The notes under the pieces are model-generated. The model did no database searches. It worked only from the letters and a program-made list of their open reading frames with translations, and was not told where the DNA came from. Below are positions 250-56,954 of a stretch of 64,000 nucleotides of DNA, piece after piece. Where the stretch lies: contig SBGR01000012.1 of NCBI GenBank assembly GCA_006226545.1, positions 38,156 through 102,155 on the forward strand, in the 5' to 3' direction. Numbering within the stretch: the stretch's first letter is position 1; the number at the start of each line of letters is the position of its first letter. The DNA is from Bacteroidota bacterium. Lineage in GTDB: Bacteria > Bacteroidota > Bacteroidia > UBA8524. The position numbers were made by a program, and so were the translations under genes.

Positions 250-654
250 ATGGCTTACTCAGAGAAAGTAATTGATCATTATACTAACCCGAGAAACATC
301 GGAACGCTTGATAAAGGCAAAAACACCGTAGGTACAGGCCTGGTAGGTGCGCCTGAGTGTGGCGACGTGATGCGTCTGCAGATTGAAGTAGGTGAGGATG
401 GCGTTATCCAAGATGCGAAGTTTAAAACCTTCGGATGTGGATCAGCTATCGCTTCTTCTTCTTTGGCTACCGAGTGGTTGAAAGGAAAAAGCATCGATGA
501 TGCGATGAAAATTGACAATATGGACATCGTTGAAGAATTGGCATTGCCACCGGTAAAAATCCATTGCTCTGTTTTGGCAGAGGATGCGATCAAAGCCGCT
601 ATCAACGACTACCGCACTAAAAACGGCCTTCCAGCATTGGAAGAAATTAAATAA
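250..654 (+). CDS. iscU: Fe-S cluster assembly scaffold IscU
   Basis: 134 aa with IscU signatures (APECGDVMRLQI, FKTFGCGSAIASSS, KIHCSVLAEDAIKAAINDY). ATG start at 250. Confidence 0.9.
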   Translation: MAYSEKVIDHYTNPRNIGTLDKGKNTVGTGLVGAPECGDVMRLQIEVGEDGVIQDAKFKTFGCGSAIASSSLATEWLKGKSIDDAMKIDNMDIVEELALPPVKIHCSVLAEDAIKAAINDYRTKNGLPALEEIK

Positions 655-8845: not shown

Positions 8846-10192
8846 TTGAACAAGAAACTGGTCATATTAGGTGCAGGCGAAAGCGGAACAGGCTCAGCCA
8901 TCCTCGGAAAACTTCGGGGCTGGGAAGTCTTTGTCTCTGATAAGGGAGAAATCAAAGAGCAGTACCGCCAGGAGCTGGATGAGGCCGGTATCGAATGGGA
9001 AAGCGGTCAACACAGCGAAGAGCGCATTCTTGCTGCCGATGAGGTGATTAAAAGTCCGGGCATTCCGGATAAAGCACCGCTGATTCAATCGCTTAAAAAG
9101 CAGGGAACACCGATCATCTCGGAGATTGAGTTTGCCGCACGCTATACCACAGCCAAGCTAATTGGCATTACCGGTACCAACGGTAAAACAACCACCACAT
9201 CGCTTTGCTACCACATCTTTCAAAAGGCAGGATTGCGAGTAGGCTTAGGCGGTAACATCGGTAAAAGCTTTGCACGCCAAGTGGCCTTAGACGACCAAGA
9301 TTACTACGTATTGGAAATATCCAGCTTCCAGCTGGACGATACCTATACCACGCGATTCCATGCGGCGGCATTGATCAATATCACGCCGGATCATTTGGAT
9401 CGCTACAACTACGAACTCAAGAATTACATCGATTCCAAATTTCGGATTACCCGCTCACAAACGGCAGAAGACCTCTTCGTGTACTGTGGCGACGATCCGA
9501 TTACGATGGAGCATATCGCCGACTATACCATCCTCGCTCAACGCTTTCCATTTACGATTGACGCAGAGCACAGCAGTCCGGGTGCATGGGTGAAAGACGG
9601 CGAGCTGCACATTGAAACCAAACAAACAGAAAACAACTTTACCATGGCAATACAAGAACTCTCCCTTCGGGGCAAACACAACAACTACAACTCCATGGCG
9701 GCGGCCGTTATTGCGAATGCATTCAATATTCGCAAGGAGGTTATCCGCGAAAGCTTAAGCGATTTCCAAAACGTAGAACACCGTTTGGAAAGTGTGGGCA
9801 AAGTGCGCGGAGTGGAATTTATCAATGATTCCAAAGCGACCAACGTAAACTCCAGCTGGTATGCCCTAGAAAGCATGGATCGTCCGGTGATCTGGATTGC
9901 CGGTGGGGTAGACAAAGGCAACGACTACAATTTGCTGAAGCAGTTGGTAAAAGACAAGGTGCGCATCATCGTGTGCTTGGGACTTGACAACCGCAAAATC
10001 CACGAAGCTTTTTCCAAAGACGTGGACATGATTCTGAATACCACTTCCATGCAAGAAGCCGTAAAGGTAGCCTACCACATGGCCGATAAGGAAGATGCGG
10101 TATTGTTGTCGCCAGCCTGCGCCAGCTTCGATTTGTTTGAAAACTACGAAGACCGCGGTCGCCAATTTAAGAAGTACGTTAAAAACCTCTAA
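8846..10192 (+). CDS. murD: UDP-N-acetylmuramoylalanine--D-glutamate ligase MurD
   Basis: TTG start (only start codon after the mraY stop). N-terminal Rossmann motif LVILGAGESG, Mur ligase P-loop [11 protein letters not shown], and C-terminal domain. Confidence 0.88.
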   Translation: MNKKLVILGAGESGTGSAILGKLRGWEVFVSDKGEIKEQYRQELDEAGIEWESGQHSEERILAADEVIKSPGIPDKAPLIQSLKKQGTPIISEIEFAARYTTAKLIGITGTNGKTTTTSLCYHIFQKAGLRVGLGGNIGKSFARQVALDDQDYYVLEISSFQLDDTYTTRFHAAALINITPDHLDRYNYELKNYIDSKFRITRSQTAEDLFVYCGDDPITMEHIADYTILAQRFPFTIDAEHSSPGAWVKDGELHIETKQTENNFTMAIQELSLRGKHNNYNSMAAAVIANAFNIRKEVIRESLSDFQNVEHRLESVGKVRGVEFINDSKATNVNSSWYALESMDRPVIWIAGGVDKGNDYNLLKQLVKDKVRIIVCLGLDNRKIHEAFSKDVDMILNTTSMQEAVKVAYHMADKEDAVLLSPACASFDLFENYEDRGRQFKKYVKNL

Positions 10193-10195
10193 GCG

Positions 10196-11383
10196 ATGTA
10201 CAACTGGCTGTTATCAAAAGTTAAAGGTGATACGGTGATCTGGACCATCGTAGTGCTACTCTCTGTGGGTGGCCTGCTGGCGGTATACAGCTCAACCGGT
10301 TCATTGGCCTTTAAACAACAGGGTGGTAATACCGAGTTCTACCTCCTGAAGCAGCTGGTCTTTATCCTTTTGGGTTTTGGGTTTATGTGGCTTTGTCACC
10401 TTTTAGACTACCGCTACTATTCCCGACTCTCTCAGTTGTTCTTGTATTTGTCTTATCCTCTGCTCCTCTATACCTTGTTGTTTGGGGTGGAGATCAACGA
10501 TGCCCGCCGGTGGATTGCCATACCGGGTACGGGCCTCACGTTCCAGACGTCCGACTTAGCCAAGCTCGCGCTTATTATGTACGTAGCGAGGTTCTTGTCG
10601 AAACGCCAGGAAAACATCAAAGACTTCAAAGGTGCCTTTTTACCGATATTGATTTCGGTATCCGTTATCTGTGTTCTGATAGCGCCGGCTAACCTTTCTA
10701 CAGCCTTAGTTATCTTTTCTACTTGTTTGCTTCTGATGTTCATCGGACGTATTCCGATTAAGTATATCCTTGCCGTGGTGGCAGCAGGTGTGGTAACCTT
10801 TGCTTTAGCCGCTTCGCTGGTATTTAATATGCCGGATGAGAAACTGGAAAACATCGCGCGTTTGCGCACTTGGAAAGCACGTATTGAAAACTTCATGGCT
10901 GATAATCCGGAAACGGGTGGAGGTAATTTTCAGAACGTACAAGCCAAGATTGCCATTGCAGGCGGTGGCTTAACAGGAAAAGGTCCGGGTAATAGCACCC
11001 AACGTAATTTCTTGCCTTCACCTTATGCGGATTTCATCTTCGCTATCATCTTGGAAGAATACGGGCTGATGGGAGGCGTAGCGCTTATTTTCCTGTATTT
11101 GCTTTTACTCTTCCGATCGATACGGATTGTGATAAAGAGTCCGAAAGCCTTTGGCGCCCTGCTGGCCGTCGGACTGAGTTTCAGCCTGGTAATCCAGGCA
11201 TTCATCAACATGGGCGTAGCGGTCAATATTTTCCCTGTTACCGGATTGGCTTTGCCGCTGGTGAGCATGGGGGGTACGTCTACCATCTTTACCAGTTTAG
11301 CCTTCGGTATCATTCTTAGTGTAAGCCGAACGATTGAGCAAGAGGGTGGTGAGGTAAATGAAAGTGAGGTGGCCCATGCGTAA
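10196..11383 (+). CDS. ftsW: peptidoglycan glycosyltransferase FtsW (SEDS family)
   Basis: 395 aa with ~10 TM segments and SEDS motifs (…IPGTGLTFQTSDLAKL…, SMGGTS). Positioned between murD and murG. Confidence 0.88.
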   Translation: MYNWLLSKVKGDTVIWTIVVLLSVGGLLAVYSSTGSLAFKQQGGNTEFYLLKQLVFILLGFGFMWLCHLLDYRYYSRLSQLFLYLSYPLLLYTLLFGVEINDARRWIAIPGTGLTFQTSDLAKLALIMYVARFLSKRQENIKDFKGAFLPILISVSVICVLIAPANLSTALVIFSTCLLLMFIGRIPIKYILAVVAAGVVTFALAASLVFNMPDEKLENIARLRTWKARIENFMADNPETGGGNFQNVQAKIAIAGGGLTGKGPGNSTQRNFLPSPYADFIFAIILEEYGLMGGVALIFLYLLLLFRSIRIVIKSPKAFGALLAVGLSFSLVIQAFINMGVAVNIFPVTGLALPLVSMGGTSTIFTSLAFGIILSVSRTIEQEGGEVNESEVAHA

Positions 11384-51013: not shown

Positions 51014-52720
51014 ATGCAAAAGAATTGGAGGGCAAAGCCGATACCCACACCCGAAGTGGTCAATCACTTGAAGTCTGTATTGGGTATTGGCGATATACTT
51101 GCTATCCTTTTAGCGCAGCGTGGCATTCAAACCTTTGATGAGGCCAAACACTTTTTTCGACCCGATAAATCCTTTCTCCATGATCCATTTTTAATGCCCG
51201 ATATGCAGGCCGCAGTGAACCGCATTGAAGTGGCGCTAAAAAAAGGGGAGAAGGTTCTCTTATTTGGAGATTACGACGTAGACGGCACCACATCCGTAAG
51301 CTTGATGTACCTTTTCTTAAAACCGCACCATGATCAATTGGAATTTTATATCCCCGATCGTTTTCTGGAAGGGTACGGAATTTCCCAAGCAGGCATCGAC
51401 TATGCAGCAAACGAAGGATTCTCCTTGGTCATATCCTTAGATTGTGGGGTGAAGTCGGTAGAGCTGATTGCTCAGGCCAAAGAACGCGGTATTGATTTCA
51501 TCGTTTGCGACCACCACGAGCCAGGGGAAGTTCTTCCGCCTGCCATTGCGGTATTAGACGCCAAAAGAAAAGATTCCAACTACCCTTATACAGAGCTTTC
51601 GGGCTGCGGGGTTGGTTTCAAATTGGCTCAAGCCTTAACACAGTACTTTGTTTGGCCTGAGGATGATTTGTGGGCGTTGATGGATTTTGTAGCCGTTAGC
51701 ATTGCTTGCGATATTGTTCAGATGGATGGTGAAAACCGGGCTTTGAGTTATTTAGGTATGCAAAAGCTCAATGCCAATCCGCATCCAGGAATCAAAGTAC
51801 TCTTAAAGAAGGCTTTTGAGAAAAACCCGAAGAAGGTCTATGATATTAGCGACGTGCTTTTTTATGCCGGTCCACGCATCAATGCAGCAGGCCGACTCTA
51901 TCACGCCAAAGGCGCTGTTGAATTACTTATTGAGCAATCAGAAGACAAGGCTTGGGAGTTTGCTCAAGCGCTTCACCTGCACAATGAGCAGCGACGAAAC
52001 CTAGAGCAAGAAATCAGCAAGCAAGCCGAATCCGAATTAGAGGCAATGCCGGATTTTGCTAAGTCCAAATCAACCGTAGCTTATAATCCGGAATGGAATA
52101 AAGGGGTTATCGGTATCGTAGCCTCACGCTTGGTAGAGAAATACTATAGGCCAACCATTGTTCTCACTCGATCTGAAGGGAAATTGGCGGGTTCAGCACG
52201 CTCAGTAGGTAACTTTGATATTCATTCGGCTATTGAGGCCTGCTCAGAACATTTATTGCAGTTTGGAGGTCATACCCATGCGGCGGGATTAACCTTGAAA
52301 GAAGAGAATCTAGTGGCGTTTAAAGCGGCTTTTGAAAAGGTGGTGACTGAGCGAATCCATCCGGATGATCTTCAGCCTAGCTTGGAATACGACTTGGAAA
52401 TTCCTTTGAACCTAATCCACGACAAGTGGGTTGATAAGTTGATGCAAATGAACCCATTCGGGCCCGGTAATATGAATCCGATTTTTATGTCGAGAAAAGT
52501 TCGCGATACGGGCATGCCGAAAGCCTATGGAGAACACCTATCGCTAAACCTTTGGGCCGGTGAGCAAGTGATTGGCGCGATGGCATTTTCGCAAGCTGTA
52601 AATCTAAATGCTGTAAAGCAGGGCAAACTTTTTGATATTTGCTACCACATTGATCGTTCAGAATTCAATGGCAAAACACGATTGCAGTTGCGAATTCTGG
52701 ACATGAAGCCTTCGGAATAA
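51014..52720 (+). CDS. recJ: single-stranded-DNA-specific exonuclease RecJ
   Basis: 568 aa with DHH phosphoesterase motifs ([21 protein letters not shown]) and a DHHA1 region (GGHTHAAGL). Confidence 0.9.
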
Positions 52721-53460
52721 TGATCTTAAGAACTGAAAATCTCCTCAAACAATACCGTCACCGTAAAGTGGTAAACGATGTGTCCATACAAGTGGAACAA
52801 GGAGAAATTGTTGGATTGCTTGGTCCGAATGGCGCCGGTAAAACCACTACCTTTTACATGACAGTGGGTTTGGTGAGTGCAGATGACGGCAGAATCTTTC
52901 TCGACGATGAAGACATCACCAAACTTCCAATGTACAAAAGAGCCCAAAAGGGTATTGGATACTTACCACAAGAAGCTTCTGTTTTTAGAAAGCTCACGGT
53001 AGAAGACAATATCTTGGCGGTTCTAGAGATGACCAACTTGAGCAAAGCCGATCGAAAGGCAAAGCTGGAAGAGCTGATAGAAGAATTCAGTTTGCACAAG
53101 GTGAGAAAGAATCTTGGTCAAGTACTTAGTGGTGGTGAGCGAAGAAGGACGGAAATAGCCCGAGCCTTGGCTACTGATCCGAAGTTTATCTTGTTGGATG
53201 AGCCGTTTGCCGGTGTTGACCCAATTGCGGTAGAAGACATTCAAGGCATCATTCATACGCTTAAAAAGAAAAATATCGGTGTACTAATCACGGATCATAA
53301 CGTGGACGAAACACTCGGAATCACAGACCGTGCTTATTTACTTTTTGAAGGAAAGCTGCTCAAAGAAGGTACCCCGGAAGAATTGGCTGAAGATGAAATG
53401 GTGCGCCGTGTCTACCTCGGTAAGAACTTCGTCTTGCGAAAAGCTTTCGCAGGAAGATAG
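52720..53460 (+). CDS. lptB: LPS export ABC transporter ATP-binding protein LptB
   Basis: 246 aa with Walker [14 protein letters not shown], the LptB-typical [15 protein letters not shown], signature LSGGERRR and Walker [10 protein letters not shown]. Start overlaps the recJ stop. Confidence 0.85.
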
Positions 53461-53482
53461 GGTGCAAATTATAATTTCTGTT

Positions 53483-53503
53483 GGGACGCCACGCTTGGCG
53501 TCC
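53483..53503. repeat. REP-like palindrome copy 1 (GGACGCCAcgctTGGCGTCC core)
   Basis: 7-8 bp stem with a 4-nt loop. The identical 25-nt sequence tgt(t/g)gggacgccacgcttggcgtcc recurs at 53655-53676 and, inverted, at 53995-54020. Confidence 0.6.
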
Positions 53504-53654
53504 GTCGGGAAGATAGGGTGCAAATTATAATTTCTGTGGGGACGCTGGAATATAGAGTGTGAAATGTTATTTCTGTGGGGACGCTGTAAGATAGAGTGTG
53601 AAATATTATTTCTATGGGGACTCTGGAATATAGAGTGTAAATTGTTATTTCTGT

Positions 53655-53676
53655 GGGGACGCCACGCTTGGCGTCC
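53655..53676. repeat. REP-like palindrome copy 2
   Basis: ggggacgccacgcttggcgtcc at the end of the 39-nt array, ~40 nt from the 3' end of the RAYT gene. Confidence 0.6.
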
Positions 53677-53715
53677 GTCCTTCCTTCCTAATAGCAGAGC
53701 TAACAGCTTTTTAAA

Positions 53716-54393
53716 TCATTTCCCTTTCCAGTTTTCTGGATTCTTTTTGATATACCAGCTGATGGTCTCAAATGATTCTTGATCTCGGACAATATGCTCG
53801 TAGAAACGACTTTGCCAAGCAAAATCAGGTTCGATATTTCGAGCTCTAGTTGTTACTGCTGATTTAAATCCTCTCATGATGGAAGCCAAATTATTGGATT
53901 GAGGACCAAATTGATTTTGAGGACTTTCACTCAAGTTTTGGAAAGGATTGATAACAGGAATGTCGTGGGGTAGTTTTGAGCTGTTCTCCGCATTGGGGAC
54001 GCCAAGCGTGGCGTCCCAACATTGAATTGAATCCTCAACCTTATGAGGGTCTCCTTCAATTATCTTGGCATCTCTTATTTCATTGTAATCAAGATTAGTT
54101 GCAGTATACTGCAGGTTACCTGAATTGTCGCCGATGCCAATCAAAGCATGAAAGTGGTTAGGCATCACTATGAATTCTCCCCTGAATAAGTTCAAATAGC
54201 TCCTGATTTCGAACGTTTTTATCCATTCATCTTGGACAATTTTACCAATTGAACTTAGCTGAATTTTAGAGTCTATAAATTCTCCAAAATGGCATAGTCG
54301 GTTTTTTGTAATCAACGTAATGAAATACAATCCAGAATTGGCATAATTCCAATGCTGTATCCTTAGCGATTCACCATAATATCGTTTAGTCAT
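53716..54393 (-). CDS. REP-associated tyrosine transposase (RAYT; IS200/IS605-like Y1 HUH transposase family)
   Basis: 225 aa with an N-terminal YFITLITKNR… strand, the HUH motif MPNHFHALIG, and a conserved SIMRGFKSAVTTRARN…FAWQSRFYEHIVRD block with the catalytic Tyr. The HUH-to-Tyr spacing is ~45 aa longer than usual because of the REP-containing insert. Confidence 0.7.
   Translation of the reverse strand: MTKRYYGESLRIQHWNYANSGLYFITLITKNRLCHFGEFIDSKIQLSSIGKIVQDEWIKTFEIRSYLNLFRGEFIVMPNHFHALIGIGDNSGNLQYTATNLDYNEIRDAKIIEGDPHKVEDSIQCWDATLGVPNAENSSKLPHDIPVINPFQNLSESPQNQFGPQSNNLASIMRGFKSAVTTRARNIEPDFAWQSRFYEHIVRDQESFETISWYIKKNPENWKGK
53995..54020. repeat. REP-like palindrome copy 3, inverted orientation, inside the RAYT coding sequence
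   Basis: ggggacgccaagcgtggcgtcccaac is the reverse complement of copies 1 and 2 including flanks. It encodes …CWDATLGVPNAE… in the transposase frame. Confidence 0.6.
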
Positions 54394-54510
54394 AAGTATA
54401 CAGATAAAGGTAGCTTGTTGTTAACTAACTGATTTCATTAAAGTTTCATCTTTTGGTTGAGGGCATGTATCTTTTTAAACTTTCGACGTTATAGTGTCAA
54501 TTGACCGCCT

Positions 54511-56286
54511 ATGAAACGTCTCCTTTTTGTCCTTGCTCTCGCTGCGACCTCGCTACTTTTTCTCATTCCTGGTTCGAAAGAATCTGTTGAAAAACCGGAG
54601 TCACTTTCTCAGGATTTACCCTCTGATATCACTGACCTTCCTTATGTTGGAGACTTTGAATCAGAACCCACTTCAATGCGCTGGGTGTCTTTTTCTAGCG
54701 AAACACTACCAATCCTTAATCCTCCTTCATTTGCTCTACCGGAGCAATTAGCAGATTCTTTGCAGTGCGACTTGCCTCTTTTAGAAAGTCCCCAAACTTT
54801 GGGTTCCTTTCAATTCAAGGAGGTAAAAAATGTAAATCCGCCATTTCCGACTATTCAGGTTCCACATGAAGTAATTACCGTCTCGGCCGCTGACTTGAAA
54901 TATGTGCAGAAACTGAAATTCATGGATGGAACGGTTTTAAATATTCCGGCAAATGCCCTCTGCATGAAAGACGGCAGCGACGTTAAAGATCCTATTCAAG
55001 TTGCTTATATGCCGCTGGATAATGCCTTTGATGTAATGTTGAGTGGTATACCAATGACCTACGATAGCGCAGGGGGACAAAGTCTTTTCCAAACCGCAGG
55101 TATGTTTCGCTTAGAAGCAAAAACAAATAAGGGTGAAGAGGTGGTTTTGAAGGACGGAAAAGCCATGAATATAGCCATGCCGACGGTAGATACCGGTGGG
55201 CGGTACAACGACTATCGATTTGATGAGCAAAGCGGAATATGGAAGTTTCAGGAGACATCTGTATCGGCTTATAATTCCTTTGTGAGAGTGGAGAATTCTA
55301 AAGAATCAGAAAGTCTAGACTACTTGTTTTTCAACAAAGACTATGCATATACCTATTCGACGGAAAACCGATTGACGCCCACCAACCTTTGTGTAAATCA
55401 TTCTCGTAAGCATAACTCCTGCCGCATACATGAGCCTTATAACATTAAGCCCAGCAGAATAAAAACCATTTACTTCAAAACACAGACGGTACGAAACGCC
55501 GAAGACAAAACGAAGAGTATCTACTTTACAGCAGAAAAACCTGATTACTATTGGGCTTTCAATCCGGAATGGAGAGTGTTCAACAACTGGAAATTTAAGT
55601 CCATCGATTATACCGAATCCAAAGAATTTAGGTTAGCCTACAAGGGTGGTAAGCGGTATAACGACATGCGTTTGATTTGGGATGGAAAAAGCAATGATGT
55701 GCTTTTATTGTTAAAACATGGTGGAGGAATGGATAGTCTCCATGCAGAAGCTTGGGACCTGAACGATAGAAAGGCATTTCAATTGCGTCGAACTTTCGCT
55801 AGAAAATACCGTCGTTACCAACGTGAATTGAACAAAAGAGAAGAGTGCCATAGAGCCAACATGCGGAGATTTCAGACTCAAACTGATCGGATGAAATTGG
55901 TGCAAACCAGACCGATGGTGCTCCCGGGTTTCGGAATTTACAACTGTGATCGAACCTACCTAATGGCAAGTCCACGCAGGTATACAAAGCTAGAATACAC
56001 AACGGCTGAAGGTCTATTGATAATGCCTTCTCAGATCATTGTTTTGGACGAGAAAGCTAGAGGTGCATTTTTCCTTAATTCAATGAGTTTTAATGCATGT
56101 ACAAAGGGTACCGTGGCGGTTTTAACATCGGATACTTCTGGGAATATGCTAGCCTGTTCAGGCAAACATTTAGCGCAATATGGAAGTTACAAAGGAGGCA
56201 AAAGGCTTAGCTTTCAAGTTGTGCCGGATGAAGTTAAAGAATACACAGCATTGCAGAATTGGCTGGAGAGTTTGAGTGAAGAATAA
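54511..56286 (+). CDS. hypothetical secreted protein, 591 aa, no recognisable domain
   Basis: ATG 54511 with signal peptide MKRLLFVLALAATSLLFLIPG. Long uninterrupted ORF with Cys-poor, Lys/Arg-rich composition in its second half. No motif recognised. Confidence 0.5.
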   Translation: MKRLLFVLALAATSLLFLIPGSKESVEKPESLSQDLPSDITDLPYVGDFESEPTSMRWVSFSSETLPILNPPSFALPEQLADSLQCDLPLLESPQTLGSFQFKEVKNVNPPFPTIQVPHEVITVSAADLKYVQKLKFMDGTVLNIPANALCMKDGSDVKDPIQVAYMPLDNAFDVMLSGIPMTYDSAGGQSLFQTAGMFRLEAKTNKGEEVVLKDGKAMNIAMPTVDTGGRYNDYRFDEQSGIWKFQETSVSAYNSFVRVENSKESESLDYLFFNKDYAYTYSTENRLTPTNLCVNHSRKHNSCRIHEPYNIKPSRIKTIYFKTQTVRNAEDKTKSIYFTAEKPDYYWAFNPEWRVFNNWKFKSIDYTESKEFRLAYKGGKRYNDMRLIWDGKSNDVLLLLKHGGGMDSLHAEAWDLNDRKAFQLRRTFARKYRRYQRELNKREECHRANMRRFQTQTDRMKLVQTRPMVLPGFGIYNCDRTYLMASPRRYTKLEYTTAEGLLIMPSQIIVLDEKARGAFFLNSMSFNACTKGTVAVLTSDTSGNMLACSGKHLAQYGSYKGGKRLSFQVVPDEVKEYTALQNWLESLSEE

Positions 56287-56303
56287 TCTGCATCTTTGCT
56301 TTT

Positions 56304-56954
56304 ATGAACGCTGTGAAAAAAATGCTACTCCTGGGTTTTTTAGCCTTTGGTGTACTTCAGGTGAATGCTCAAGGCTTGACCGATGCAGAAGAATCTACTG
56401 GTTATTCAACCCTTGGTAGACACAGTATAAGTTTTCATTATGGCATCCCGTCTGTTCAGAAGATGGTAGCCAATACAGTCAATAATATTGTCGATTTTCA
56501 ATTCAGAGAAACGGGCCCATTCCATGTGAAATACCAATACAGAGCCGGGCGAGTTTTTGAATGGGGACTAATGCTGAATTACCAGGAGTCTTCGTTCAAT
56601 TGGACAGATAGCCTGGAGTCCAATCGGGTGGATGCACAGATAGGTGCCGATGTTTCCAGCTTTAATGCCATCGCTCGAATGAACCTGCATTTTTTAAAGT
56701 CGGGGATGCACAACTTCTACCTCGGTATGGGACTGGGTTTTTCGTATTGGAAAGTGAATCCTATTGGAGGTATTGTGATAGATGATGAAGTCAATTTGGC
56801 CATCCCTAATTTTCTCAGCCTAAAAGGTGTATTACCGGCAGGTGAGTTTGTTTTAGGCTATAGAGGCTTCCTCAATAAGCAGGTAGGCATAAGCGCAGAA
56901 CTTGGCCTGACAAAGTCAATCTTTCAAGCAGGCCTAACCTACCGATTCAACTAA
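56304..56954 (+). CDS. small outer-membrane beta-barrel protein (OmpW/OmpA-like porin family)
   Basis: Signal peptide MNAVKKMLLLGFLAFGVLQVNA-QG, alternating hydrophobic beta-strand pattern, and C-terminal …GLTYRFN with a terminal aromatic residue. Confidence 0.5.
   Translation: MNAVKKMLLLGFLAFGVLQVNAQGLTDAEESTGYSTLGRHSISFHYGIPSVQKMVANTVNNIVDFQFRETGPFHVKYQYRAGRVFEWGLMLNYQESSFNWTDSLESNRVDAQIGADVSSFNAIARMNLHFLKSGMHNFYLGMGLGFSYWKVNPIGGIVIDDEVNLAIPNFLSLKGVLPAGEFVLGYRGFLNKQVGISAELGLTKSIFQAGLTYRFN

Follow-up and report, generated by a model that had tools for sequence, protein, structure and literature searches.

A probable subclass 2.4 REP-associated tyrosine transposase gene from a Bacteroidota genome, with its hairpin beside the gene and in frame inside it

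The stretch of DNA analysed here (the window, 64 kb from a Bacteroidota bacterium) contains a minus-strand gene, referred to below as the RAYT gene, in the order recJ-lptB-RAYT-orf591 (Table 1). The upstream neighbours are lptB and recJ; lptB and the RAYT gene have convergent 3' ends, and a hairpin array lies in the intergenic space between them. An earlier, sequence-only reading of this DNA had placed the gene between lptB and an orphan secreted-protein gene. The first assignment was confirmed (TIGR04406, 381 bits against a cut-off of 240), whereas the 591-aa neighbour matched no family. The same reading described the locus as AT-richer than its flanks, in agreement with a GC content of 0.36 to 0.41 over the RAYT gene and 0.43 to 0.47 on both sides of it. 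No tRNA genes were found.

Table 1. Position and composition of the features of the RAYT locus (coordinates of the window)
Feature	Position	Strand	Description
RAYT gene (TnpA_REP-like Y1 HUH)	53716..54393	(-)	225 aa; assigned to subclass 2.4 (Bertels Group 4); from the ORF listing, homologs and fold
HUH motif NHFH (N79-H82)	54148..54159	(-)	H80 and H82 invariant in 25/25 homologs
WQ motif (W193-Q194)	53812..53817	(-)	W in 25/25 and Q in 24/25 homologs; opens the "tyrosine block" of the sequence-only reading
Y motif YIKKNP (Y214-P219)	53737..53754	(-)	Y214, predicted catalytic Tyr
Intragenic REP	53996..54020	(-)	Foot GTTG (54017-54020), 9-bp stem, 4-nt loop; exact 20-mer match (53997-54016)
Five-unit tandem array	53453..53680	(+)	First and last units hold the two complete 3' hairpins
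Array unit U1	53453..53508	(+)	56 nt; last 8 nt of lptB with its TAG stop, spacer, foot GTTG (53480-53483), complete hairpin (53484-53503)
Array units U2-U4	53509..53625	(+)	3 x 39 nt; each with spacer, foot (GTGG, GTGG, ATGG) and first 6-7 nt of the 5' arm
Array unit U5	53626..53680	(+)	About 55 nt; spacer, foot GTGG (53653-53656), complete hairpin (53657-53676)

The open reading frame proposed to carry a HUH motif does so, with NHFH at residues 79 to 82. The "tyrosine block" WQSRFYEHIVRD, taken in the sequence-only reading for the catalytic tyrosine site, proved instead to be the conserved W motif (WQSRFYEH). The position of its Y198 is occupied by His in 22 of the 25 aligned homologs, and the invariant tyrosine is Y214. 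In the same alignment Y214, I215 and N218 of the Y motif are invariant and P219 is present in 24 sequences; the pattern Y[IV]xxN[PV] occurs in 117 of the 120 top homologs. The fourth residue of the motif is K, as against the N of YIxNNP, and close homologs also vary here (YIKNNP, YIRSNP and YIIANP).

According to its AF2 model, the RAYT product has a Y1/HUH fold. The core was predicted with pLDDT values above 85, with H80 and H82 on the strand formed by residues 80-87 (beta3) and Y214 on a helix spanning residues 205-221. Between beta3 and the helix of residues 169-184 (alphaC) lies an insert of about residues 88-165, whose pLDDT falls below 50 over residues 97-165 and which is variable in length in the homolog alignment (homologs of 175 to 262 aa). 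A Foldseek search of the PDB with this model gave as the best match 4er8_A, a TnpA_REP with a REP hairpin bound (E 4e-5), and all of the top 30 matches were either TnpA_REP or IS200, IS608, ISDra2 or Sulfolobus TnpA proteins. A PDB search with the single RAYT sequence returned noise alone and did not match 4ER8. Pfam PF01797 (Y1_Tnp), which the sequence-only reading had named as a check, reached 16.6 bits against a gathering cut-off of 23, aligning the C-terminal residues 167-217 only; judged by the refuting conditions of that reading, the case is borderline. The best family match, NCBIfam NF047646 (REP_Tyr_transpos), was also below threshold (48 bits against a cut-off of 80, E 1.1e-12), and was broken into two stretches by the long insert. 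Among 1,111 homologs retrieved, the few with a name in their source were called "transposase", "putative transposase" or "REP element-mobilizing transposase RayT". The fold, the invariant motifs and the homolog names support the proposed identity of the product as a Y1 tyrosine transposase of the REP-associated kind, with hairpins cognate to it.

The palindrome reported to accompany the gene, GGACGCCACGCTTGGCGTCC, is indeed present in three exact copies, two on the 3' side and one inverted, where 100 shuffles gave a chance expectation of 0.00. Every copy was predicted to fold into a hairpin with an 8-9-bp stem and a 4-nt loop (dG -10 to -12 kcal/mol, z -3.3 to -4.0), with -11.6 kcal/mol for the inverted one. 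The conserved 5' flank described for the palindrome corresponds to a GTKG foot, which has the canonical form GT[AG]G in one of the three complete copies (GTGG) and the non-canonical form GTTG in the other two. The gene is not, however, flanked by palindrome copies on both sides. No hairpin was found 5' of it, and the inverted copy lies in frame within the ORF, where it codes for C125-WDATLGVP-133. This intragenic REP falls inside the disordered insert, between the HUH motif and helix alphaC, and differs from flanking copy 1 in just the last of its 25 nt, the foot being identical.

The two palindromes on the 3' side are real, but they are the outermost hairpins of a five-unit tandem array that the sequence-only reading had missed and in which the three middle units have shortened hairpins. 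TRF described the array with a period of 39, 3.4 copies and 87% matches, and an 18-mer scan gave 5 matches against 0.03 expected. Units U2-U4 are 17 nt shorter than U1 and cannot form the hairpin, because just the first 6-7 nt of its 5' arm are present. The last unit is separated from the RAYT stop codon by 36 nt. The junctions in U2-U4 read GACGC|TG|GAA, and deriving these units from a full one by a single deletion, with direct repeats or CT cleavage sites as its end points, gave no clean junction. The 39-nt unit had no match in 125 fetched loci, so this array is lineage specific; tandem arrays of REP units adjoining or inside the homolog genes were also observed at two other loci (L105 and L116).

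Uniqueness of the palindrome to this locus had been named in the sequence-only reading as a refuting condition. Within the DNA searched it does appear unique to the locus: it occurs three times there, and no further copy of GGACGCCACGCTTGGCGTCC was found in the 64-kb window with up to 5 mismatches allowed. In 50 homolog loci all cognate copies lay within 1.5 kb of the gene, with none or at most 1 in 247 kb of flank farther out. A search of 185,579 species representatives, the source genome not being among them, with the 21-mer gave 44 stretches, almost all of them from Pasteurellaceae and none from Bacteroidota. Neither genome-wide "repetitive extragenic" dispersal of the REP nor activity in trans is demonstrated by the window and the homolog loci, and we propose that the substrate copies have built up in cis alone, near the gene.

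At the orthologous locus L045 the gene order is that of the window, and LptB is 94.7% identical between the two whereas RAYT is 57.8% identical. In L045, too, one flanking REP follows the lptB stop, and another, inverted, lies inside the gene at the equivalent place, within one residue of a conserved INPF motif. The REP 25-mers are 1-2 nt apart within a genome and 4-5 nt apart between the two genomes; at the level of sequence, the internal and flanking hairpins thus co-diverge between the window and L045. The presence of an ortholog at the lptB-RAYT site, 58% identical, argues for vertical inheritance of RAYT. With respect to a single-copy, vertically inherited gene, we found one copy in the 64-kb window, no second copy in any of 81 homolog loci, and synteny kept in L045.

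The association between gene and hairpin extends to the family. At 50 of 82 loci the linker contained a G+C-rich hairpin with a perfect stem of 7 bp or more, and 27 of these 50 had an extragenic copy of their own hairpin (permutation mean 2.1, maximum 7 in 2,000 trials). For 48 loci, the distance between RAYT proteins correlated with that between hairpin arms (Spearman 0.445), a value reached by none of 2,000 Mantel permutations.

These features are those of a group already described. Subclass 2.4 of Quentin et al. (2018; BMC Genomics 19:475; PMC6006769), which corresponds to RAYT Group 4 of Bertels et al. (2017; GBE 9:2110), shows the motifs NH[IFV]H, WQ and YIxNNP, a variable insert between beta3 and alphaC, a canonical foot-plus-hairpin REP and, as its unique hallmark, the in-frame insertion of a REP between HuH and Y. 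The protein studied here shares NHFH, WQ, a YIxxNP-type Y motif and a long variable beta3-alphaC insert, and the locus shares the in-frame REP between HuH and Y, a foot and hairpin whose stem has G-C pairs at the bottom, a Bacteroidota host, a gene that appears to be single copy and low hairpin abundance. We provisionally assign RAYT to subclass 2.4/Group 4 on this match of motifs, variable insert and in-frame REP. Differences were also observed: YIKKNP instead of YIxNNP, the GTTG foot of two copies instead of GT[AG]G, 132 aa from HuH to Y against a reported subclass median of 88, flanking REPs on the 3' side only, and a tandem array with half-hairpin units. In contrast to classical REPtrons, the RAYT gene is not bracketed, having no 5' hairpin. 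The sequence-only reading had considered a clear RAYT/REP example outside Proteobacteria worth recording, but such a system is not new: subclass 2.4 was already known to be abundant in Cyanobacteria and Bacteroidetes (PMC6006769). The layout, with a hairpin beside the gene and another in frame inside it, is likewise already known for Bacteroidetes and Cyanobacteria, and this locus is an ordinary new case of it.

The best structural match, E. coli TnpA_REP (YafM, PDB 4ER8; subclass 2.2/Group 2; TM 0.63 on the target), has in common with RAYT the HUH and Tyr catalytic residues, a 5' tetranucleotide foot and, as it appears, the condition of a domesticated single-copy gene. It is just 14% identical in sequence, however, and its gene has neither an insert after the HUH strand nor an internal REP; in the REPs of E. 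coli the stem is imperfect, with a bulge, and the foot strictly GTAG, and their hundreds of dispersed copies are arranged as BIMEs. The REPs of Pasteurellaceae (Actinobacillus, Glaesserella and Mannheimia), for their part, contain the identical 20-nt hairpin. Their RAYT is of the Group 4 type. A RAYT fragment of Glaesserella (formerly Haemophilus) parasuis, 38% identical to RAYT, has the motifs MPNHFH, WQPRFHEH and YIQNNV and is an indirect link to Haemophilus, the reference genus of Group 4 (Bertels et al. 2017). Unlike those of the window, the Pasteurellaceae REPs have the foot GTAG (GTKG here), occur on many contigs and often form inverted, REPIN-like doublets 30-52 nt apart, and the accompanying RAYT, from another phylum, has a short linker and no internal REP. 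A recent horizontal transfer from Pasteurellaceae as the origin of the identical hairpin was rejected, since the single RAYT fragment recovered from those loci shares 38% identity over its 84 C-terminal residues and the foot differs.

Taken together, these results indicate that the locus is probably a "REPtron" of the RAYT subclass 2.4/Group 4 type, that is, a single-copy, vertically inherited gene for a Y1 HUH endonuclease plus its cognate hairpin. The cognate substrate would consist of a GT[G/T]G foot followed by a G+C-rich stem of 8-9 bp. By analogy with the biochemistry of the TnpA_REP proteins of E. coli, S. maltophilia and Marinomonas, RAYT would bind the folded single-stranded hairpin plus foot, would cut nearby by means of Y214, with the metal held by H80 and H82, and could rejoin strands. 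Two complete and three truncated copies of this hairpin make up the tandem array of the lptB-RAYT intergenic space, and one copy sits in frame in a disordered, insertion-tolerant loop, the recurrent REP landing site of subclass 2.4. That the hairpins inside and outside the gene stay similar to each other in one genome while changing with the enzyme is read as co-evolution or concerted evolution. RAYT would itself have made the local hairpin copies; its catalytic activity, like any benefit to the host, is inferred.

A further proposal, which we consider rather unlikely, is that subclass 2.4 REPtrons, the present one among them, are essentially self-contained, their sole substrates lying within or at most about 1.5 kb from their own gene and being kept identical by ongoing cutting and rejoining in cis or by gene conversion. 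Units U2-U4 would then be in-vivo scars of aberrant RAYT cleavage and strand transfer in the 5' arm of the hairpin, and the in-frame copy a maintained self-target.

The most serious alternative to a REPtron with a REP inserted in a permissive loop, although an unlikely one, is that the intragenic hairpin is a maintained cis-acting site. RAYT would bind or cut its own gene or transcript, as autoregulation or a self-limiting switch, or the inverted pair would rearrange the 3' half of the gene. In accordance with this possibility, the internal copy has kept its near-identity to flanking copy 1 although the protein has diverged by 42% from its ortholog, the internal REP of the ortholog is equally placed and has co-diverged with the external copy, and a perfect linker hairpin is kept in 50 of the 82 family members. 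The orientation of the internal-hairpin foot, however, is random over the family (15 sense, 16 antisense, 13 double-footed and 6 without a foot), which also ruled out a fixed strand of the internal REP, the arrangement expected for a role in the mRNA. Moreover, the linker copy number ranges from 0 to 3, and in some members, for instance a homolog of 175 aa (P0012) and that of Glaesserella, the linker is short and free of REPs. Random orientation, REP-less members and variable linker copy number are in keeping with REPs having repeatedly inserted in a permissive loop, as Quentin et al. (PMC6006769) interpret it.

It is very improbable that the gene belongs to an autonomous insertion sequence of the IS200/IS605 type, with a mobile TnpA gene and subterminal hairpins, instead of being a domesticated RAYT. 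The Y1 fold is common to the TnpA proteins of IS200, IS608 and ISDra2, the Pfam Y1_Tnp model gives a weak match, and the GC content of the RAYT gene is below that of its neighbours; IS608 and ISDra2 TnpA also recognize single-stranded hairpins with a guide tetranucleotide 5' of the hairpin. Such elements are nonetheless multicopy and mobile, with hairpins at the left and right ends and often tnpB, and their Y motif is Y[IV]ENQ, whereas the motifs of RAYT are of the RAYT type (WQ, YIxxNP). The gene is present once in the window, with no hairpin at its 5' end and no tnpB-like ORF beside it in the ORF listing, and it is fixed at a syntenic site. It occupies the same site in a relative with 95% identity in LptB and only 58% in RAYT, which points to long residence and not to a recent insertion.

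Equally hard to credit is the view that regulatory or structural host elements of the convergent lptB and RAYT 3' ends (for instance mRNA 3'-end stabilizers or terminators), grown by replication slippage without RAYT, account for the extragenic hairpins and the 39-nt array. In its favour, the hairpins directly follow the lptB stop in both genomes and have the same sense as lptB, the array units take in the 8 terminal nt of lptB as a plain tandem duplication predicts, and REPs are known to stabilize upstream mRNA (PMC3733652). Against it, the same hairpin and foot occur inside the RAYT ORF, the hairpin sequence follows the RAYT phylogeny over 48 loci, a terminator scan did not call the REP hairpins because their stems have no trailing T-tract, and Rfam gave no match at E<=1 over positions 53300-54600 and none at the gathering thresholds over the whole window.

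The REPtron described here adds one more clean case, with an ortholog comparison, of a transposase-derived gene holding its own DNA substrate in frame. In subclass 2.4 the cognate hairpins appear to stay by the gene and not to spread, and the internal and flanking hairpins to evolve in concert, which bears on what RAYTs do and on how REPs disseminate. The picture drawn by Quentin 2018, Bertels 2017 and Corneloup 2021 is unchanged.

As regards annotation, the product of the RAYT gene, a hypothetical protein of 199 aa in the public record, can be named a subclass 2.4 (Group 4) RAYT. The start of the recorded gene appears to lie 26 codons too late. From the sequence, the likely true start is the ATG at 54393; the shorter version is disfavoured because the invariant N-terminal residues Y5-Y23 lie upstream of it.

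The minus-strand ORF proposed by the sequence-only reading at 53716-54393 was present and encodes 225 amino acids. Its product fell below threshold with both the Pfam Y1_Tnp profile (16.6 bits; cut-off, 23) and the NCBIfam REP_Tyr_transpos profile (48 bits; cut-off, 80), and searching the PDB by sequence alone returned no match, in all cases because of its long insert. An AlphaFold model built with 25 homologs showed a confident core (pLDDT of >85 for residues 21-90 and 169-221) and low confidence for residues 97-165. The top PDB match of this model was the Escherichia coli TnpA_REP with bound REP hairpin (4er8_A; E value, 4e-5), followed by the IS200, IS608 and ISDra2 transposases. The tyrosine of WQSRFYEH (Y198), earlier taken as the tyrosine block, had to be discarded, because 22 of 25 aligned homologs have His there. 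It is Y214, within YIKKNP, that is invariant, in agreement with the Y motif defined for the TnpA_REP family.

The protein search yielded 1,111 homologs, the closest sharing 40-58% identity. Organism names accompanied few of them and were almost all from Bacteroidota, and the few source names were 'transposase', 'putative transposase' or 'REP element-mobilizing transposase RayT'. In the public record, the gene seems to be entered as a 'hypothetical protein' of 199 aa (EP332_01875) whose first residue is L27 (TTG). The 26 residues thus omitted (window 54313-54393, minus strand) include Y5, S9, R11, W15, Y17 and Y23, all invariant in the homologs, so that translation more likely begins with the ATG at 54393.

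TnpA_REP subclass 2.4, defined by Quentin et al. 2018 (PMC6006769) and corresponding to Group 4 in the scheme of Bertels et al. 2017, carries the motifs NH[IFV]H, WQ and YIxNNP, an insert of variable length from beta3 to alphaC and canonical foot-plus-hairpin REPs, its 'remarkable and unique feature' being in-frame intragenic REPs located between HuH and Y (PMC6006769). The window gene has NHFH, WQ and YIKKNP, an insert in that exact loop and an in-frame REP; judged by these sequence features, it is therefore a member of this already described kind. The motifs and the fold match to 4er8_A bore out, in broad terms, the identification of a REP-associated tyrosine transposase (RAYT) with cognate hairpins. 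The interest attributed to such a system outside Proteobacteria did not hold, since subclass 2.4 is abundant in Bacteroidetes and also in Cyanobacteria (PMC6006769).

The repeated palindrome was real, the 20-mer GGACGCCACGCTTGGCGTCC occurring at exactly three exact sites in the window, with a chance expectation of none (100 shuffles). Folded as single-stranded DNA, every copy formed a stem of 8-9 bp with a 4-nt loop (-10 to -12 kcal/mol; z-scores, -3.3 to -4.0), and each was preceded on its 5' side by a tetranucleotide foot. No fourth copy was found anywhere in the 64-kb window with up to five mismatches allowed; this absence from the 63 kb surrounding the locus speaks only against a high density. 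The third copy, previously considered a flanking element, is intragenic and supplies the codons for C125-WDATLGVP-133 in the RAYT reading frame. The two 3' copies make up the first and fifth units of an overlooked tandem array with five units in all. All units open with GAAKATAG, which in unit 1 is the final 8 nt of lptB, stop codon included, a copy of those 8 nt thus starting each unit. Units 2-4 lack 17 nt (CACGCTTGGCGTCCGTC), and with so little of the 5' arm retained the hairpin cannot form. They could not be derived from a full unit by one clean event; neither a single deletion nor any known cleavage site fits the junctions, and the truncated form was not found in the other loci searched.

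Coordinates of REP-related features in the window and in other loci
Feature	Position	Strand	Description
Array	53453-53680	+	56-nt unit, three 39-nt units, complete final unit
Array units 2-4	53509-53625	+	39 nt each; foot kept, only first 6-7 nt of 5' arm
20-mer copy 1	53484-53503	+	exact match
20-mer copy 2	53657-53676	+	exact match
20-mer copy 3	53997-54016	-	exact match
Foot GTTG	53480	+	precedes copy 1
Foot GTGG	53653	+	precedes copy 2
Foot GTTG	54017-54020	-	precedes intragenic copy
L116 arrays (homolog locus)	10276-10354, 9619-9904, 10629-10848		in linker inside gene, 2.9 copies of 27-nt unit; upstream of gene, 4.3 of 68-nt unit; downstream, 2.6 of 85-nt unit
L105 array (homolog locus)	431-531		upstream of gene, 2.5 copies of 40-nt unit
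Pasteurellaceae examples	L024 2656-3337; L013 879-956; L014 548-568 and 7616-7888		

These features were compared across 82 loci (80 metagenome homolog loci, that of the closest relative, L045, and the window). A palindrome-encoded linker peptide (e.g., RDAMHCVST, VETQCIASL or DAMPGVP) was present in nearly all aligned homologs, and a few 175-aa homologs lacked it. Perfect G+C-rich linker hairpins of at least 7 bp were found in 50 of the 82 loci, and in 27 of these 50 the core was repeated extragenically (≤1 mismatch), against a mean of 2.1 and a maximum of 7 recurrences when hairpins were permuted among loci (2,000 trials). At that stringency, all 56 extragenic cognate copies lay within 1.5 kb of the gene and none in the 247 kb of flank beyond; with ≤4 mismatches, 83 copies were near and 1 was far. 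Hairpin-arm distance correlated with RAYT protein distance (Spearman, 0.445; reached by 0 of 2,000 Mantel permutations), consistent with published evidence that RAYTs and REPs co-evolve. REP-unit tandem arrays adjoining or within the gene also occurred in two homolog loci, L105 and L116. The foot of the internal hairpin favoured neither strand (15 sense, 16 antisense, 13 double-footed and 6 without foot), and linkers held from 0 to 3 REP copies; both observations point to recurrent insertions in a permissive loop rather than to one conserved functional site.

If it works like the TnpA_REP enzymes already characterised (PMC8266576, PDB 4ER8), the RAYT would bind the folded single-stranded hairpin plus foot, cut near it via Y214, with H80/H82 holding a metal and the foot guiding the choice of cleavage site, and be capable of strand transfer. 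The clustering of cognate copies next to and within the gene suggests that it would act mainly in cis, although it could also be a product of local recombination.

L045 and the window share the gene order recJ, lptB, RAYT (convergent with lptB) and a 591-aa gene, with identities of 94.7% for LptB, 84.9% for RecJ and 57.8% for the RAYT. Retention of the site despite this divergence of the RAYT indicates long residence; it argues against an active IS, and by this comparison of sequences the RAYT behaves like a domesticated gene. The tandem array is restricted to the window's lineage, L045 having just one REP beyond the lptB stop, plus an internal inverted REP whose position agrees with that of the window within one residue relative to the conserved INPF motif. 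Within either genome, REP 25-mers including the foot differed by 1-2 nt, and comparison of the two genomes gave differences of 4-5 nt; thus, internal and external copies changed together.

In Pasteurellaceae (Actinobacillus, Glaesserella, Mannheimia, Rodentibacter and Ursidibacter; L001-L044), an identical 20-nt hairpin with a GTAG foot forms a dispersed REP. GTA preceded GGGACGCC in 63 of 65 of these copies, many of which formed inverted doublets spaced 30-52 nt, and L024 carried a 127-nt tandem array. Glaesserella parasuis (L014) holds a RAYT fragment of the same subclass (MPNHFH, WQPRFHEH and YIQNNV) without internal REP. Recent transfer would account for the shared hairpin, but this fragment is only 38% identical to the window protein and the feet differ (GTAG versus GTTG/GTGG), which argues against it. 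The identity seems to reflect slow co-evolution, or else convergence by chance, among members of the subclass.

The peculiarities of the window locus are minor, namely, the foot GTTG, the restriction of its REPs to the 3' side and the truncated-unit array. Directly downstream of recJ and lptB (51014-53460, plus strand) comes the RAYT; those two genes overlap by one base at 52720, and the pair is kept in L045. RecJ is a single-stranded DNA exonuclease (TIGR00644, 498 bits), and its position adjoining a RAYT that acts on single-stranded DNA may be coincidence. On the other side (54511-56954, plus strand) are the 591-aa gene, with a signal-peptide-like N terminus, and a 216-aa gene; neither product matched a Pfam family, nor the former an NCBIfam model. 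Both share only 53-57% identity with their L045 orthologs and thus evolve as fast as the RAYT, compared with 95% for LptB.
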